The position numbers were made by a program, and so were the translations under genes. This document shows, one piece after another, positions 2,211 through 55,400 of a stretch of 64,000 nt of DNA (positions are counted from its first letter, which is position 1; each line of letters begins with the position of its first letter). This stretch comes from Escherichia phage EP_H11. The stretch is taken from the sequence record OP688485; one strand, written 5' to 3'. A model generated the notes under the pieces. That model was not told the origin of the DNA and made no database searches. It worked only from the letters and a program-made list of their open reading frames with translations.

Positions 2211-2299
2211 ATTTTATTTTTCAAATAATGAAAAATAAAACGATTTATGAAGCCTCCTAAAGCCCGTTCTTTTGGGTGGCGGGGCGTTCCCGCTGCTTC
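2211..2299 (+). promoter_or_regulatory. class II intergenic element, copy 1 (candidate early promoter/leader)
   Basis: AT-rich module TTTTTCAAATAA..GAAAAATAAAACGATTTATGAA, then core TAAAGCCCGTTCTTTTGGGTGG, then GC hairpin GCGGG-GCGTT-CCCGC and GCTTC. Confidence 0.6.
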
Positions 2300-2313
2300 T
2301 TCTTCTTCTTCTT
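2296..2313 (+). repeat. (CTT)6 microsatellite in the leader downstream of class II copy 1
   Basis: Six perfect CTT units read directly from the sequence. Confidence 0.9.
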
Positions 2314-2328
2314 CTCTAAGGATTGGAT

Positions 2329-2475
2329 ATGTTAACTTTAAGAGATTTCATTAGCGATTACCAGAGAATGGTAATTAACGGTGACTCCAAGAAGCCGGAT
2401 GTGGTAGAGTCTCTGATCACCACATACTATGCTCATATTGCAGACCAATGTAGATCATACCTGTCGTCTAAGTAA
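2329..2475 (+). CDS. hypothetical small protein (48 aa, below ORF-track cutoff)
   Basis: ATG 9 nt after AAGGATTGG. MLTLRDFISDYQRMVINGDSKKPDVVESLITTYYAHIADQCRSYLSSK. First ORF after class II copy 1. Confidence 0.4.
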   Translation: MLTLRDFISDYQRMVINGDSKKPDVVESLITTYYAHIADQCRSYLSSK

Positions 2476-2480
2476 CGTAA

Positions 2481-2503
2481 TAGGCTGGGAGTTACCCAGC
2501 CTA
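2481..2503 (+). terminator. stem-loop, weak terminator or RNA-stabilising hairpin
   Basis: TAGGCTGGG-AGTTA-CCCAGCCTA followed by CTTTCT. Confidence 0.4.
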
Positions 2504-2525
2504 CTTTCTAATTTGGGATTATTAT

Positions 2526-2765
2526 ATGTCTAGAATCTTCACTATCCCAGGAACCAAGATTTTGGTCCTGACCTCGAATCGCAATATCGCTAAGATTCAG
2601 TACCATCCTTCCAAAGATCAGTACTGCGTAATTCTCGAAGGTAAAAACGGAGTTACGGAGCACTGGACTAACTCATTATTCTCTGCCCTAATGCATACTG
2701 CCGACGTCGATAACTTCGACCCGATTATGGTAGACACCTTCCTGAAAATGGTAGGTGAAGCATGA
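2526..2765 (+). CDS. hypothetical early protein (79 aa)
   Basis: ORF with conserved TIR TCTAATTTGGGATTATTATATG. Same pattern as the next ORF (I-x-Y-x-P-x4-Y-x-V, C-terminal D-x-F-L-x-M/L-x-G). Confidence 0.6.
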   Translation: MSRIFTIPGTKILVLTSNRNIAKIQYHPSKDQYCVILEGKNGVTEHWTNSLFSALMHTADVDNFDPIMVDTFLKMVGEA

Positions 2766-3025
2766 TTAAGATGGTGGAAGTAACTCAATTCAATACTGTG
2801 GTGGTTAAGTCTGTAAACTTTCTATCCAGCATAGTGTATTACCCGAATCTTGGAATCTACGAAGTGGTCAAGCATCCTATGGGTGAGGCTAAGGTGGTAA
2901 TGTCAACCGAATCTGGTCGCTTCGCCAGAGAAATGGCTAAGGAGATAGACTCCTTCTTTAATTCTGCGATGGATGACTTCCTTGAGCTAACAGGCTGGTA
3001 TAGTCTTCCAGAACCGCTCCTTTGA
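2762..3025 (+). CDS. hypothetical early protein (87 aa), apparent tandem paralog of 2526-2765
   Basis: ATGA start/stop overlap with upstream ORF. Shared motif pattern SIVYYPNLGIYEVV vs KIQYHPSKDQYCVI. Confidence 0.6.
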   Translation: MIKMVEVTQFNTVVVKSVNFLSSIVYYPNLGIYEVVKHPMGEAKVVMSTESGRFAREMAKEIDSFFNSAMDDFLELTGWYSLPEPLL

Positions 3026-3049
3026 GGCCTCCAAAGGCTGTTAAACTGT
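3014..3049 (+). promoter_or_regulatory. class I 36-nt element, copy 1
   Basis: CCGCTCCTTTGAGGCCTCCAAAGGCTGTTAAACTGT. Overlaps the last codons and TGA of the upstream ORF; 30 nt before ATG 3080. Confidence 0.65.
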
Positions 3050-3079
3050 GTGAGCTTATTTAACCTGACCGGAGAAATT

Positions 3080-53013: not shown

Positions 53014-53669
53014 TGCGAATCTGGACCGAGGAGAACTCTATTCTGGAGTTTAGTGGAGAGTACCGATTCCTCTCTAACTTTTATCCTATTCCTATCGAGG
53101 ATAAGAATCCATATGGGAACGAGACTCTTCCTTCCCTTACTTACCCCAGTCTGGAGCATGCCTATCAAGCATCTAAGTCTCCATCACTAGCTCATCGTCT
53201 TATAATAGCTAGACTCCATACTCCTGGGGAGGCTAAGAGATACGGACGTAAGCTATCCATTACCGAATCGTGGAAGGAACAGCGAGTAGATGTAATGGAA
53301 CACCTACTCCGGATTAAATTCGCGAAAGGTGGGGAGCTAGCTCAAAAATTGATCGATACTTGGCCTAAGGAACTGGTCGAAGGAAATACCCACGGAGACT
53401 CTTTCTGGGGTATGACTCGTGAGGAATACAAGTCCGTCCTTACGGGTATTAACATGCTTGGACGACTATTGATGAAACTTCGGGAGGAGTTAATTATGGA
53501 ACAAATGACTAAGAAGACAGGATCGTTTGAGGAGTGGCATAAATTGCTGCACCAATACGCTCAGTCTCGTGGTGGTAGCGCTGCGGACGCCGAGGCTTGG
53601 CGGGATGATTACGATGAAGGTAAGACTCCTAAGCAGGCCTACGACGATGAGTGGGGCGAAGAAGACTAA
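53010..53669 (+). CDS. NADAR (YbiA/DUF1768) domain protein with C-terminal extension
   Basis: FSGEYRFLSNFYP, YPSLEHAYQASK, GEAKRYGR, WKEQRVDVMEHLLRIKF, ELVEGNTHGDSFWG are the canonical NADAR blocks. Confidence 0.8.
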   Translation: MMRIWTEENSILEFSGEYRFLSNFYPIPIEDKNPYGNETLPSLTYPSLEHAYQASKSPSLAHRLIIARLHTPGEAKRYGRKLSITESWKEQRVDVMEHLLRIKFAKGGELAQKLIDTWPKELVEGNTHGDSFWGMTREEYKSVLTGINMLGRLLMKLREELIMEQMTKKTGSFEEWHKLLHQYAQSRGGSAADAEAWRDDYDEGKTPKQAYDDEWGEED

Positions 53670-53676
53670 CCTATCT

Positions 53677-53704
53677 TAGCGCTCTTTAGGGAGCGCTATT
53701 TTTA
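53677..53704 (+). terminator. rho-independent terminator containing a core-like sequence
   Basis: TAGCGCTC-TTTAGG-GAGCGCTA then TTTTT. The 5' arm + loop reads GCGCTCTTTAGGG, like the shared element core. Confidence 0.8.
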
Positions 53705-53723
53705 TTTAACGTTGGGAGTAATT

Positions 53724-53963
53724 ATGGATCAGCCTATCCAAACAGTAATTAACGCAGTTGGGAGCATGCAGATCGTGGGTTATGATACCTATGAGCAAGT
53801 AGCTCAAACAGTTAAACTTGATCCTCGCAAGAAGCGTCGTGGTCATCGTCAGGCAGCTAAGAGTTTGCTGCGTAATGGTGGGCTCTTCAATAACTACTCC
53901 TCACCAGGAACTACATTCTGGTGGGTTGCACAATGGCATCTTAAGAAGGCACGTAATGGTTGA
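53724..53963 (+). CDS. hypothetical protein (79 aa)
   Basis: ATG behind TTGGGAGTAATT. Confidence 0.5.
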   Translation: MDQPIQTVINAVGSMQIVGYDTYEQVAQTVKLDPRKKRRGHRQAAKSLLRNGGLFNNYSSPGTTFWWVAQWHLKKARNG

Positions 53964-54309
53964 AGATACTGGAATTCATGACGGACGCTGGGAAGAGCGA
54001 TATAACTCCGTACGGCAGGAGCTCGACACTACTAAGGCTAATCTGAGTAAGGCAAGAGTAGAGAATGCCGAAAACCGAGCTATGCATCACCGTATTATTC
54101 AGATGGCTATTGATGATGGCTGGACGGGTGATCATAATAGTAATGTTGAGGATGCAGTAAAATTCCTCTCTGGTAGAGAGCGTAAAGTAACTGCTCCTAA
54201 AGTACATTATACAGATCATATCACCGTAGGTAAGCCTTCCCCAGTGTATGATGCTGTTGAAGTAGATACATTATTAACCAGCCTAGGATACATTGTGGAT
54301 AAGGATTAA
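53956..54309 (+). CDS. hypothetical protein (117 aa)
   Basis: ATG 53956 overlapping the upstream stop; in frame with track ORF 53818. Confidence 0.5.
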   Translation: MVEDTGIHDGRWEERYNSVRQELDTTKANLSKARVENAENRAMHHRIIQMAIDDGWTGDHNSNVEDAVKFLSGRERKVTAPKVHYTDHITVGKPSPVYDAVEVDTLLTSLGYIVDKD

Positions 54310-54311
54310 TT

Positions 54312-54347
54312 CCGCCGTTTCTTACCCTCGAAAGGCTGTTAAATTGT
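54312..54347 (+). promoter_or_regulatory. class I 36-nt element, copy 15
   Basis: CCGCCGTTTCTTACCCTCGAAAGGCTGTTAAATTGT; 26 nt before ATG 54374. Confidence 0.6.
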
Positions 54348-54373
54348 TGCACCTCAACTAATAAGGATAACCG

Positions 54374-55087
54374 ATGTCTACTAAGATGATGCCACACCAT
54401 CTGGCACCGAATAAACTGTTTAACCGATTCCTGTCATATCATGACTCCTATCACTGCGCAATCGACATCGAGACTGAGTATCTCGATTTTAAAGAGCCTG
54501 GGGTAGTTCTGTCTGTAGGTATGGTAACGATCGGTCCAGAGCATTACTCCCACGTTTATTTTACTATTGATCGTGAAGAATCTCTGGCATTGGGTATGAA
54601 GTCCGACCCTAAAGTAGTGGAGTGGCTCAATACCCTCCCGAAACCCGTCCGTGATGCCGCATATGCTAATCCGGTATCTGTTGACGAAGCTCTGGATATC
54701 ATCGAGGATTACGTAGCTAAGGTATTACAGGACACTGGCTGCGAGATGTTGAACTTTATCGGTAACGCACCGGAGTTCGACCAAGGATTCCTGGATTGGT
54801 ACTTTAAGGCCAAAGGGCGTAAGACTCCGTTCCTTCACTGGATGAATCGTGACTTCCGCACTCTGGCTAGTCTGCAGCTAATCTCTTTCGATGAACGCCG
54901 CATGATTAAAGAAGAACTGCGTAGCCAGCACGAATCTATGTCTGACCACCATGCTCTGTTTGATGCTATGCTGGAAGCTAAGACCTGGGTTCGCACCATC
55001 AACCGAGTAAAAGAACTGCAGGATCTGGAGCATGAAGTAAACACCATGATCGCTCTGCAGGGTAATTCTGTTGAGGATGAAGAGTAA
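54374..55087 (+). CDS. DEDDh 3'-5' exonuclease (Rv2179c-like / DnaQ-fold)
   Basis: Exo I AIDIETE, Exo II NAPEFDQGFL, Exo III HHALFDA. Confidence 0.65.
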   Translation: MSTKMMPHHLAPNKLFNRFLSYHDSYHCAIDIETEYLDFKEPGVVLSVGMVTIGPEHYSHVYFTIDREESLALGMKSDPKVVEWLNTLPKPVRDAAYANPVSVDEALDIIEDYVAKVLQDTGCEMLNFIGNAPEFDQGFLDWYFKAKGRKTPFLHWMNRDFRTLASLQLISFDERRMIKEELRSQHESMSDHHALFDAMLEAKTWVRTINRVKELQDLEHEVNTMIALQGNSVEDEE

Positions 55088-55400
55088 GCTCTGCCGCGTA
55101 GTTAATATACGTACCAATCCTAATTATGATCTGTATGTTGGGAGAGGTACGTTATTCGGGAATAAGTGGAGCCATAAAGATTTACCTAACGCTATCAATG
55201 TAGGTTCCCGAACATTAGCTATCGCGAAATACCGACTATGGTTCCACCAGCAAGTAAAAGATGGCCATATAAGCATCTCATACCTGCGGACTCTGAAGGG
55301 TAAGACTCTGGGATGCTCCTGCTTACCATTACCATGTCATGCTCAAGTAATAGCTGACTTCGTTAATTCATTACCAGACGAAGACTCCGCTCTTTCGTAG
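55071..55400 (+). CDS. DUF4326 domain protein
   Basis: YDLYVGRGTLFGNKW...LKGKTLGCSCLPLPCHAQVIADFVN matches the DUF4326 pattern (YIGR..WGNPF...L.CWC.P..CH.dvl). Confidence 0.65.
   Translation: MRMKSKLCRVVNIRTNPNYDLYVGRGTLFGNKWSHKDLPNAINVGSRTLAIAKYRLWFHQQVKDGHISISYLRTLKGKTLGCSCLPLPCHAQVIADFVNSLPDEDSALS

Follow-up and report, generated by a model that had tools for sequence, protein, structure and literature searches.

Genomic setting

The window analysed here, 64,000 nt of Escherichia phage EP_H11 (OP688485), is about 94% identical to Escherichia phage vB_EcoM_IME392, whose genes include one for a 5-hmdU DNA kinase and a split gene for a bacterial-type RNA polymerase β'; the phage DNA is probably thymidine-hypermodified. 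The genome is 116 kb, below jumbo size. Between 1 and 59.6 kb, the genes all lie on the plus strand. Both β' halves are most similar to bacterial β', and the gene for the N-terminal half occupies 29676-31244; a search for a β-like polymerase gene found none. The window has no Rfam match, and the searchable literature on this phage group holds no transcription start site, RNA-seq or biochemical data.

Two classes of intergenic elements

The original prediction of 22 strand-specific intergenic elements is borne out: 16 class I and six class II copies lie within 2259-55422, all on the plus strand, between genes and upstream of genes. Class I is recognised by an exact AAAGGCTGTTA (16 matches, all plus, against 0.01 expected), class II by AAAGCCCGTTCTTTTGG with at most three mismatches (six matches, all plus, against 0.06 expected). 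The elements and a terminator discussed below are:

2233..2297, +, class II: upstream box AAATAAAACGATTTATG, 19-nt register, downstream box AAAGCCCGTTCTTTTGG and GC leader hairpin; terminator 2177-2198 precedes
3014..3049, +, class I, CCGCTCCTTTG .. AAAGGCTGTTAAACTGT: upstream of topoisomerase II genes (IME392 annotation)
6363..6398, +, class I: upstream of methyltransferase-like gene 6420-7160; terminator-like hairpin 6321-6342 precedes
7204..7239, +, class I: upstream of 7262-8170 and a BCCT transporter gene
9545..9580, +, class I: leader holds a strong hairpin and T-run, 9592-9618
11284..11319, +, class I: upstream of 11343-12422 and the 5-hmdU DNA kinase gene
13420..13455, +, class I: exact 15-mer CCGCTCTTTTAGGGT, one of only two such copies
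15276..15311, +, class I: begins right after the stop codon of a thymidylate-synthase-like gene; downstream-box end overlapped by a hairpin and T-run, 15305-15332
18860..18895, +, class I: upstream of DNA polymerase gene 18909-22208
22461..22496, +, class I: upstream of 22571-24926
24989..25055, +, class II: upstream of small ORFs and the β' C-half gene; terminator 24932-24949 precedes
25345..25405, +, divergent class II: GCGAAGTCTG .. ACAGCCCGTTCACTTGG and hairpin; nearest to the class II form of relative L131
28813..28878, +, class II: upstream of 28905-29660 and the β' N-half gene
32887..32922, +, class I: downstream box is the 5' arm of a 17-bp terminator hairpin, 32908-32944, with T-run
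33028..33097, +, class II, core variant CCCGTTCTTGTGGGC: after terminator 32908-32944
36526..36596, +, class II: upstream of small ORFs and a Pol X gene
38048..38083, +, class I: second exact CCGCTCTTTTAGGGT copy; upstream of a DNA ligase gene
45005..45040, +, class I
50200..50235, +, class I
51597..51632, +, class I
53677..53708, +, intrinsic-terminator-like hairpin (9 bp, loop of 4) and T-run: similarity of its GCGCTCTTTAGGG string to the class I upstream box is at background level only
54312..54347, +, class I
55387..55422, +, class I

All elements are co-oriented with the genes. From the end of the downstream box to a start codon with a Shine-Dalgarno sequence there are 13-74 nt in class I and 49-65 nt in class II, and eight of the 16 class I elements start 0-2 nt past the upstream stop codon. 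Class II is confined to 2.2-36.6 kb. IME392 carries 25 class I copies, all on the strand of the early/middle arm and none in the structural arm, where no comparable motif was detectable. Its first copy lies within the 150-bp divergent region heading the arm, and a GGAGG-N7-ATG begins 1 nt past the TGT of this copy; the presumed start site would therefore have to be at the end of the box. Two class I leaders hold terminator-like hairpins (9592-9618 and 15305-15332), an odd feature directly after a promoter and one that counts against reading these elements as promoters.

A shared two-box plan

In both classes, the first base of an upstream box and the first base of a downstream box are 19 nt apart. 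The upstream box is 10-11 nt long: CG occupies columns -18/-17, and after it comes a T-rich stretch whose last base is G. The downstream box begins AAAG(G/C)C-N-GTT and ends in TG. The boxes read CCGCTCTTTTG ... AAAGGCTGTTAAAnTGT in class I and (A/C)CGAtTTtTG ... AAAGCCCGTTCTTTTGG in class II, in which a GC-rich hairpin follows directly. The classes differ mostly in the stretch from GTT to TG, which is an A-tract in class I and a T-tract in class II. The skeleton CG-N17-AAG-N-C-N-GTT-N4-TG has 21 exact matches in the window, all on the plus strand (16/16 class I and 5/6 class II), with none outside the elements and 0.01 expected by chance. It also matches six class I copies on the early-arm strand of an IME392 segment (L002) and, with one mismatch allowed, all six elements of L131.

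When about 128,000 positions are scored with a 47-column class I matrix, the class I sites take ranks 1-16 and the six in-register class II sites ranks 17, 20, 21, 24, 34 and 47. In a motif-versus-motif scan, the in-register alignment is the best of 148 full-overlap offsets (-15.5 vs -37.8 for the next same-strand offset), a score reached by 0 of 1000 shuffles; the register was noticed post hoc, and its significance is about 0.01-0.02 after correction for some 150 possible offsets. In-register identity is moderate, with agreement at about 14-16 of the 26 columns conserved in class I. Scored by the class I downstream-box matrix on its own, class II comes out negative (-7.7), and 163 window positions score at least as high.

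The two-box plan recurs, with lineage-specific boxes, in Acinetobacter phage Ab1-TPeters, Ralstonia phage RP13 and three contigs assembled from public sequencing runs (L130, L131 and L132). RP13 has AGACnGTTATTTTGG with a GC hairpin and AACGACGCTAT-N10-AGACCTTGT. The hairpin-bearing class sits before β' genes in the window, RP13 and the Acinetobacter phage. Upstream and downstream boxes do not co-vary in the Acinetobacter phage, RP13 or L132.

The proposed core in the two classes

A 14-15-nt core, CCG(C/T)TCTTTT(A)GGGT, had been proposed to unite all 22 occurrences. The pattern CCG[CT]TCTTTTA?GGGT matches only six sites, four in class II and two in class I; the 15-mers quoted for it do exist, CCGCTCTTTTAGGGT at 13420 and 38048 and CCCGTTCTTTTGGGT at 2263, 25019, 28843 and 36556, but they are not common to all 22 elements. 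Across the 25 class I copies, information in this region is limited to columns -19 to -10, CCGCTCTTTT: CCGYTCTTTT(G) is the conserved part, and AGGGT, in which a single G is conserved, is variable spacer. In class I, the claimed core consists of the upstream box and five variable spacer bases; in class II, it is made up of the downstream box and the opening bases of the leader hairpin. These are different functional modules, and the in-register alignment fits better than the shared core.

What the two strings share, a 10/11 match to CCG(C/T)TCTTTTG, is either coincidental, both boxes being rich in T, or a faint trace of related half-sites, and tests of whether it exceeds chance disagree. The class II string scores 11.8 bits with the class I upstream-box matrix, a value reached by 18 of about 128,000 positions (13 class I, four class II and only one outside the elements), and the 10-mer CCGYTCTTTT occurs eight times, always on the plus strand, against 0.09 expected; yet 13.7% of column-shuffled motifs give an equally good local match. 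If one protein bound the string as DNA, its site would fall near -35 in class I and across the -10/start region in class II, so the protein could activate one class and block or initiate the other, thereby coupling the temporal classes. Relatives give this idea some encouragement: both boxes of L131 contain a TCTTTT(T)G tract, and CCTGTT(T), common to the upstream and downstream boxes of one class in the Acinetobacter phage, hints at related half-sites. We nonetheless regard such a binder as unlikely. The sole mismatch falls at a position that is C in 25/25 class I copies; L131, a 47%-identity relative, has CGAG for CCG in class II; L132 shows no such similarity between classes, and RP13 only a gapped, partial one; AGGGT is unconserved in class I, and the GGGT of class II belongs to the leader hairpin.

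Plus-strand bias carries no information, as the genes between 1 and 59.6 kb all run that way. The terminator said to carry the core is real as a hairpin, TAGCGCTC-TTTAGG-GAGCGCTA, with a T-run (53677-53698), but its resemblance to the core is at chance level: the class I upstream-box matrix gives it 9.6 bits, a score reached by 26 window positions, about nine of them outside elements. AAAG does follow the core in class I and precede it in class II; since AAAG opens the downstream box in both classes, the register explains this opposite order, and the suggested CUUU/AAAG pairing need not be invoked. The idea that a single factor reads both classes keeps its footing in their relatedness and probable shared machinery, but not by way of the core, which occupies different promoter positions in each class.

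Leader hairpins and RNA-level readings

Leaders of class II are far more structured than those of class I, with mean free energies of -16.0 vs -4.8 kcal/mol. The stem sequence of class II changes from copy to copy, and from the window to L130, with pairing preserved. The class II core alone can also fold a small GCCCG/TGGGT hairpin (-5.9 kcal/mol, z about -2.3). The latter would suit an arrangement in which the AT-rich segment TTTTTCAAATAAACGATTTTTGAA is the whole class II promoter, as in the early, AT-rich promoters used by virion polymerases of jumbo phages, and the core and GC hairpin are leader RNA that might serve as an attenuator, stabiliser or protein-binding site. Early promoters of jumbo phages are AT-rich motifs of about 10 nt centred near -10 (PMC7598289), and the window, L131 and RP13 all retain the AT-rich block. 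Against this, CG at -18/-17 and the 19-nt register are identical to those of class I, and the small hairpin is absent from RP13, L131 and L132 and is out-competed by the longer leader hairpin when both are present. An AT-rich block acting by itself is therefore rather improbable.

Since the genes of this long arm all run in one direction, read-through RNA contains the intergenic elements, which could in principle act there as intercistronic processing or stability sites, or as nut-like antitermination sites using CUUU/AAAG pairing. GC(N)CTTT can pair with AAAGGC in seven of 16 class I copies, and terminator hairpins overlap some copies. Class I, however, has no consistent fold (mean z -0.85; 9/16 fold differently), the invariant boxes show no covariation, Rfam yields no match in the window, and the first copy of the arm has neither an upstream gene nor an obvious upstream promoter. 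Box sequences shift with phage lineage while their spacing is kept, as protein-DNA recognition predicts. We consider action in RNA quite improbable.

A more specific proposal, that host NusB/NusE (S10) bind a boxA-like CGCUCUUU in RNA of both classes to make transcription termination-resistant, is very improbable. As in λ nut and rrn BoxA, the class I upstream box includes CGCTCTTT, which equals the first eight bases of a boxA-like string and occurs 11 times on the plus strand, nine of them in class I. BoxA is reported to be highly conserved across γ-proteobacteria, with the functional consensus GYTCTTTAANA (PMC5725501); no class I or class II element fits it, even with one mismatch. The class I box would also lie upstream of the likely start site, and its equivalent varies among relatives: the Acinetobacter phage has CCTGTYYCTTAA or a hairpin there, and L132 has CCGAACGTAA.

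Two probable promoter classes of one phage programme

The elements are most likely promoters of the phage's own transcription programme. We think it probable, judging from the register and its conservation, that the 22 repeats form two phage promoter classes built on one two-box plan and sharing transcription machinery, rather than one core module. One polymerase core would read both classes via alternative specificity determinants, much as in sigma replacement or when T4 MotA/AsiA appropriate sigma. Initiation would take place at, or just past, the TG ending the downstream box, placing the GC-rich hairpin of class II at the transcript 5' end. Terminators may shield class II units, which include both β' genes, from upstream read-through.

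The promoter system is most likely an ordinary, though undescribed, one. Early promoters of phages with multisubunit RNA polymerases (φKZ, AR9 and relatives) have been reviewed (PMC7598289). The elements described here resemble them as conserved strand-specific motifs upstream of early/middle operons, detectable from sequence alone, in a phage that carries β'-like genes and has no comparable detectable motif in its late/structural arm. Where those promoters are a single AT-rich motif, about 10 nt long and placed at -10, the elements here are bipartite with a fixed 19-nt register and come in two classes on one plan; the genome is not jumbo-sized, and its β' halves are closest to bacterial β', with no β homologue found.

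T4 middle promoters combine a MotA box at about -30 with a σ70 -10 element, σ being appropriated by MotA/AsiA. Here too, a phage-specific upstream box would stand in for the -35 element, at constant spacing from a -10-like element. In its downstream box, class I has the extended -10 form TGT-TAAAnT (TG, T(-12) and A(-11) in 25/25 copies, T(-7) in 24/25). Unlike the T4 case, the box sequences bear no relation to that of the MotA box, C occupies the essential A(-11) position in class II, and the DNA is probably thymidine-hypermodified.

Like T7/SP6 promoters, the elements are many near-identical, strand-specific copies directly before genes, often right after the preceding stop codon. Unlike the T7/SP6 case, no single-subunit polymerase gene is seen among the annotated genes; a T7/SP6 promoter forms a single uninterrupted block of about 23 bp, whereas the elements here consist of two boxes with about eight variable bases between them.

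Two Element Classes and the Proposed Common Core

Escherichia phage EP_H11 carries two classes of intergenic elements, each composed of an upstream and a downstream box. The 22 elements are real, 16 of class I and six of class II, all on the plus strand. AAAGGCTGTTA occurs 16 times, always on this strand and in class I, against 0.01 occurrences expected in the window, and AAAGCCCGTTCTTTTGG, at up to three mismatches, occurs six times, always on this strand and in class II, against 0.06 expected. The plus-strand bias noted in the original prediction tracks gene orientation.

The original prediction proposed that all 22 elements share a core, CCG(C/T)TCTTTT(A)GGGT. 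In terms of the boxes described here, this string spans the upstream box and spacer in class I and the downstream box and the start of the leader hairpin in class II. The figure of 22 counts elements, not core matches: the degenerate core is present in 6 of 22, the exact 15-mers CCGCTCTTTTAGGGT and CCCGTTCTTTTGGGT occur twice and four times, respectively, and CCGYTCTTTT matches eight sites in the window. The class I alignment comprises 25 copies, 16 from the window and nine from the rest of the corresponding arm of Escherichia phage vB_EcoM_IME392 (IME392); counting columns from the first base of the downstream-box AAAG (column 0), the information sits at CCGCTCTTTT (columns -19 to -10), G at -6, TC at -3/-2, AAAGGCTGTTAAA (0 to 12) and TGT (14 to 16). 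AGGGT, which had been assigned to the core, is unconserved in class I in the 25-copy profile and represents spacer, and GGGT forms part of the class II leader-hairpin region.

A Bipartite Plan Shared in Register

The relationship between the classes appears to be a common bipartite plan, not a shared 15-nt core. When the elements are placed in register, the CG of class II coincides with the invariant CG of class I (columns -18/-17) and is followed by a T-rich run ending in G, with AAAG 19 nt after the first base of the box, as in class I. The skeleton CG-N17-AAG-N-C-N-GTT-N4-TG finds 21 sites in the window (every one of the 16 class I elements and five of the six in class II) and nothing else, with 0.01 expected; the sixth class II copy, at 25375, has ACAG in place of AAAG. 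Both this skeleton and the 25-copy information profile display fixed box spacing with variable sequence between the boxes. A 47-column class I matrix ranks the class I sites 1-16 among about 128,000 positions, and the same matrix, applied in register, places the class II elements at ranks 17, 20, 21, 24, 34 and 47.

Direct comparison of the two motifs was based on full-overlap and local-segment scores, as an all-overlap sum favoured trivially short overlaps. Among 148 full-overlap offsets the in-register one scores best, and none of 1000 shuffles equals it; corrected for the choice of offset, the significance of a register that was spotted post hoc is about 0.01-0.02 from this genome alone. 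The alignment in the original prediction is the best short local segment only, and 13.7% of shuffles equal it. The classes differ chiefly in the stretch that separates GTT from TG, an A-tract in class I and a T-tract in class II, which may reflect alternative specificity determinants acting with a common core.

Conservation of the Plan in Related Phages

Counterparts of the elements in relatives appear to settle the register. In Ralstonia phage RP13, whose β’ is 35% identical, AAATGTTAcCAGT-N8-AGACnGTTATTTTGG is present seven times with a GC hairpin behind it, and AACGACGCTAT-N10-AGACCTTGT ten times. In Acinetobacter phage Ab1-TPeters (about 50% identical), one class reads CCTGTYYCTTAA-N-AAAACCTGTTwrGTTGT, in many cases with GGGCGGG...CCCGC after it, and a second class terminates in AAAAGCTGTTTAAAGTGT. 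Three contigs were assembled from sequencing runs SRR21194222 (L130), SRR17866140 (L131) and SRR5988119 (L132). L131 (47% identical, gene order kept) contains four copies of CGAAnTyTG-N10-AAAGCGAGTTCTTTTGG plus a hairpin and, for class I, two copies carrying AAAAGGCTGTTAAATTGT; L132 (39% identical) contains CCGAACGTAA-N9-AAAGCCTTTTAAAAGA-GGCGGGGCG; L130 (75% identical) starts within a class II downstream box and stops within a class I upstream box, as would be expected if the assembly broke at repeats. Across the relatives, the spacing and the GC hairpin are kept and the downstream box still opens with an AAAG(G/C)C-type sequence; the CCG of the proposed core is not kept. Ab1-TPeters, RP13, L130, L131 and L132 all display lineage-specific box sequence on a constant architecture.

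In the second promoter-like class of Ab1-TPeters (10546-16832), the upstream half is a small hairpin directly before AAAAGCTGTTTAAAGTGT, and its stems vary among copies, e.g., AAGCTCgtaattGAGCTT and AACTCAaaatTGAGTT.

The relatives also bear on the shared string itself. Because it is unusual against the genomic background, with a single non-element position scoring equally high, the match is kept as a minor possibility: CCG(C/T)TCTTTTG could, improbably, be a true recognition half-site for a single phage-encoded DNA-binding protein or polymerase specificity subunit. The site would lie at about -35 in class I and across the -10/start region in class II, and a single protein would switch expression between the classes; it might also sense hypermodified thymidines of the T-tract, which would restrict recognition to phage DNA. 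A single shared site would be expected to co-vary in related phages, but the upstream box of class I and the downstream box of class II do not change in step. In L131, CGAGTTCTTTTGG faces ACAATCTTTTTG / GCGCCCTTTAA, with the T-tract as the sole shared part; the boxes do not match in L132 or the Acinetobacter phage, and the match in RP13 is gapped and partial.

Elements as Candidate Promoters

The common bipartite plan, together with the placement of the elements, leads us to infer that they are phage promoter families of the bipartite type. All 22 are intergenic and on the gene strand, often beginning 0-2 nt past the preceding stop codon, and a start codon with a Shine-Dalgarno sequence lies 13-74 nt (class I) or 49-65 nt (class II) beyond the end of the downstream box. 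The first class I copy of IME392 (L002, a segment of this genome, 14213-14172, minus strand) lies in a 150-bp divergent region that heads the arm, with no gene upstream. There, GGAGG-N7-ATG begins 1 nt past TGT and therefore the start site would be at the box end. Five class I copies fall within the first 2 kb of the IME392 arm. The IME392 structural arm contains neither class I nor class II elements, and a k-mer search of its intergenic regions found no shared late-arm motif; published work on phages that have multisubunit polymerases describes a parallel situation (PMC7598289).

Class I elements have no consistent fold, and Rfam and tRNA scans of the window returned nothing. Scans of IMG/VR yielded no match to the protein of the N-terminal half of β’ and, for two DNA patterns, single chance matches only, in unrelated contigs. 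A sigma-70 consensus scan flagged none of the elements. The extended -10 form (TGn, then T-A-n-n-n-T) is recognisable as TGT TAAAnT in class I, but class II, with CGT TCTTTT, does not fit it; given the class I downstream box, the reading enzyme could be the host sigma-70 holoenzyme with a phage factor, or equally a phage-modified polymerase.

Three 20-kb scans over window positions 1-60000 each gave fewer sigma-70-type -35/-10 matches than the corresponding dinucleotide shuffles (21 versus 34.6, 23 versus 35.6 and 28 versus 43.7).

A search of the accessible literature found neither expression data nor a description of transcription for this phage group, nor any account of promoter families of this type in the clade. 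The result is a 31-site catalogue of predicted promoters for the genome type, 25 of them class I and six class II, accompanied by a simple skeleton; four relatives carry counterparts. It supplies exact positions for 5'-end mapping, the A-tract/T-tract class pair provides a clean contrast for specificity experiments, and the role of base modification in promoter recognition can now be asked.

Leaders and Terminators

Class II leaders form 7-10-bp GC hairpins that begin at about the second base past the box, and their mean free energy is -16.0 kcal/mol versus -4.8 for class I. These structures come from single-sequence folds, as consensus folding of a MAFFT alignment recovered only six pairs, owing to differing loop lengths. 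Stem sequence varies from copy to copy and, at orthologous sites, between the window and L130. Terminator-like hairpins at 2177-2198, 24932-24949 and 32908-32944 precede class II elements and would therefore shield them from upstream read-through. In the window, class II precedes the β’ genes, as does the hairpin-bearing class in RP13 and the Acinetobacter phage.

Class II units also have a common translation-initiation region, TCTAATTTGGAG/GGGA, about 8-10 nt ahead of ATG (e.g., 28885-28896, 33108-33118 and 36610-36622); the units of L131 have their own common version, TTTGTTTAGGAGTTA. A (CTT)n run at 2298-2318 follows the class II hairpin of the 2263 element; at the equivalent point in IME392 (segment L001, about 1870-1900) the sequence is unrelated and another gene comes first.

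The original prediction also placed the core inside a terminator, a GC-rich hairpin with a T-run at a gene end:

53677, plus strand: intrinsic terminator with a 9-bp stem and a loop of 4, then TTTTTATTT, directly after the ORF at 53010-53669

Scored with the class I upstream-box matrix, this terminator reaches at best 9.6 bits, a value attained by 26 window positions, about nine of them outside the elements. The resemblance is at background level and is treated as chance.

At 32887-32960, a 17-bp terminator hairpin (AGGCTGTTAAC...GTTAACAGCCT, then a T-run) has a class I downstream box as its 5' arm; read-through RNA would terminate here, and RNA begun at the element would lack the 5' arm. Strong hairpins with T-runs also occur inside the leaders downstream of two class I elements, at 9592-9618 and 15305-15332, ahead of the start codons at 9643 and 15359, and could be attenuators or terminators for read-through RNA only.

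Resemblance to BoxA

Recognition by host NusB/S10 through a boxA-like string had been raised as well. The functional gamma-proteobacterial BoxA consensus is GYTCTTTAANA (PMC5725501); at up to one mismatch it has 20 matches in the window, none in a class I or class II element. A conserved host factor would imply a lineage-independent sequence, but the Acinetobacter phage, RP13 and L132 each carry a different box in this place. With respect to the predicted starts, the class I box lies upstream and would be present in read-through RNA only, and the class II box straddles the start. The Nus link is unsupported, as are the shared 15-nt core and the terminator link, and none of the three should be carried forward as stated.

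Gene Content

The window is about 94% identical to IME392 (116 kb), its plus strand corresponding to the minus strand of that record. From 1 to 59.6 kb every gene is on the plus strand; beyond this point, the minus strand carries the converging end of the structural and lysis arm. The plus-strand arm encodes topoisomerase II, helicases, family A DNA polymerase, ligase and Pol X, together with the following genes:

12422-13393, plus strand: 5-hmdU DNA kinase (Pfam PF18723, E = 4e-35)
26582-28096, plus strand: C-terminal half of a bacterial-type RNA polymerase β’
29676-31244, plus strand: N-terminal half of a bacterial-type RNA polymerase β’

The kinase is accompanied by thymidylate-synthase-like, methyltransferase and glycosyltransferase-like genes. 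In a published comparison (PMC12686479), IME392 falls in a set of phages with a DNA polymerase similar to the one of YerA41, a thymidine-hypermodified phage. In this group, probable thymidine hypermodification goes together with a split bacterial-type β’ gene.

The probable hypermodification genes form a block at 6420-15275 (methyltransferase-like, PIG-L deacetylase-like, glycosyltransferase-like, 5-hmdU DNA kinase, P-loop protein and thymidylate-synthase-like), with a separate class I element for nearly every gene or gene pair. A gene for a BCCT-family betaine/carnitine/choline transporter, unusual in a phage, lies in the middle of this block (8174-9556, E = 1.6e-91).

No β-like gene was detected among 40 window and IME392 proteins scanned against Pfam, PDB sequence searches with two neighbours of the β’ genes found no β-like subunit, and local tblastn with Acinetobacter-phage proteins gave one unrelated match only. 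Jumbo phages with virion-polymerase early promoters encode β and β’ homologues that form a virion and a non-virion polymerase; here a single set of β’ halves was found. Either β is too divergent for detection or the phage β’ partners host β.

The split β’ is closest to bacterial β’ (E = 4e-28 against solved bacterial chains). Its neighbours at 22571-24926 and 28105-29660 are conserved, 220-480 aa long and without a family match, and the gene lists of L131 and L132 give the same picture. For the 303-aa ORF at 22571-23482, tblastn against the phage collection gave no match, including in IME392 with its otherwise about 94% identity, and the ORF looks like a replaced gene cassette. The ORF at 32054-32560, which belongs to the class II unit carrying the N-terminal half of β’ and RNase H, matches the Acb1 anti-CBASS family (Pfam PF23474, barely over threshold) and an RNA-ligase (2H phosphoesterase-like) PHROG.
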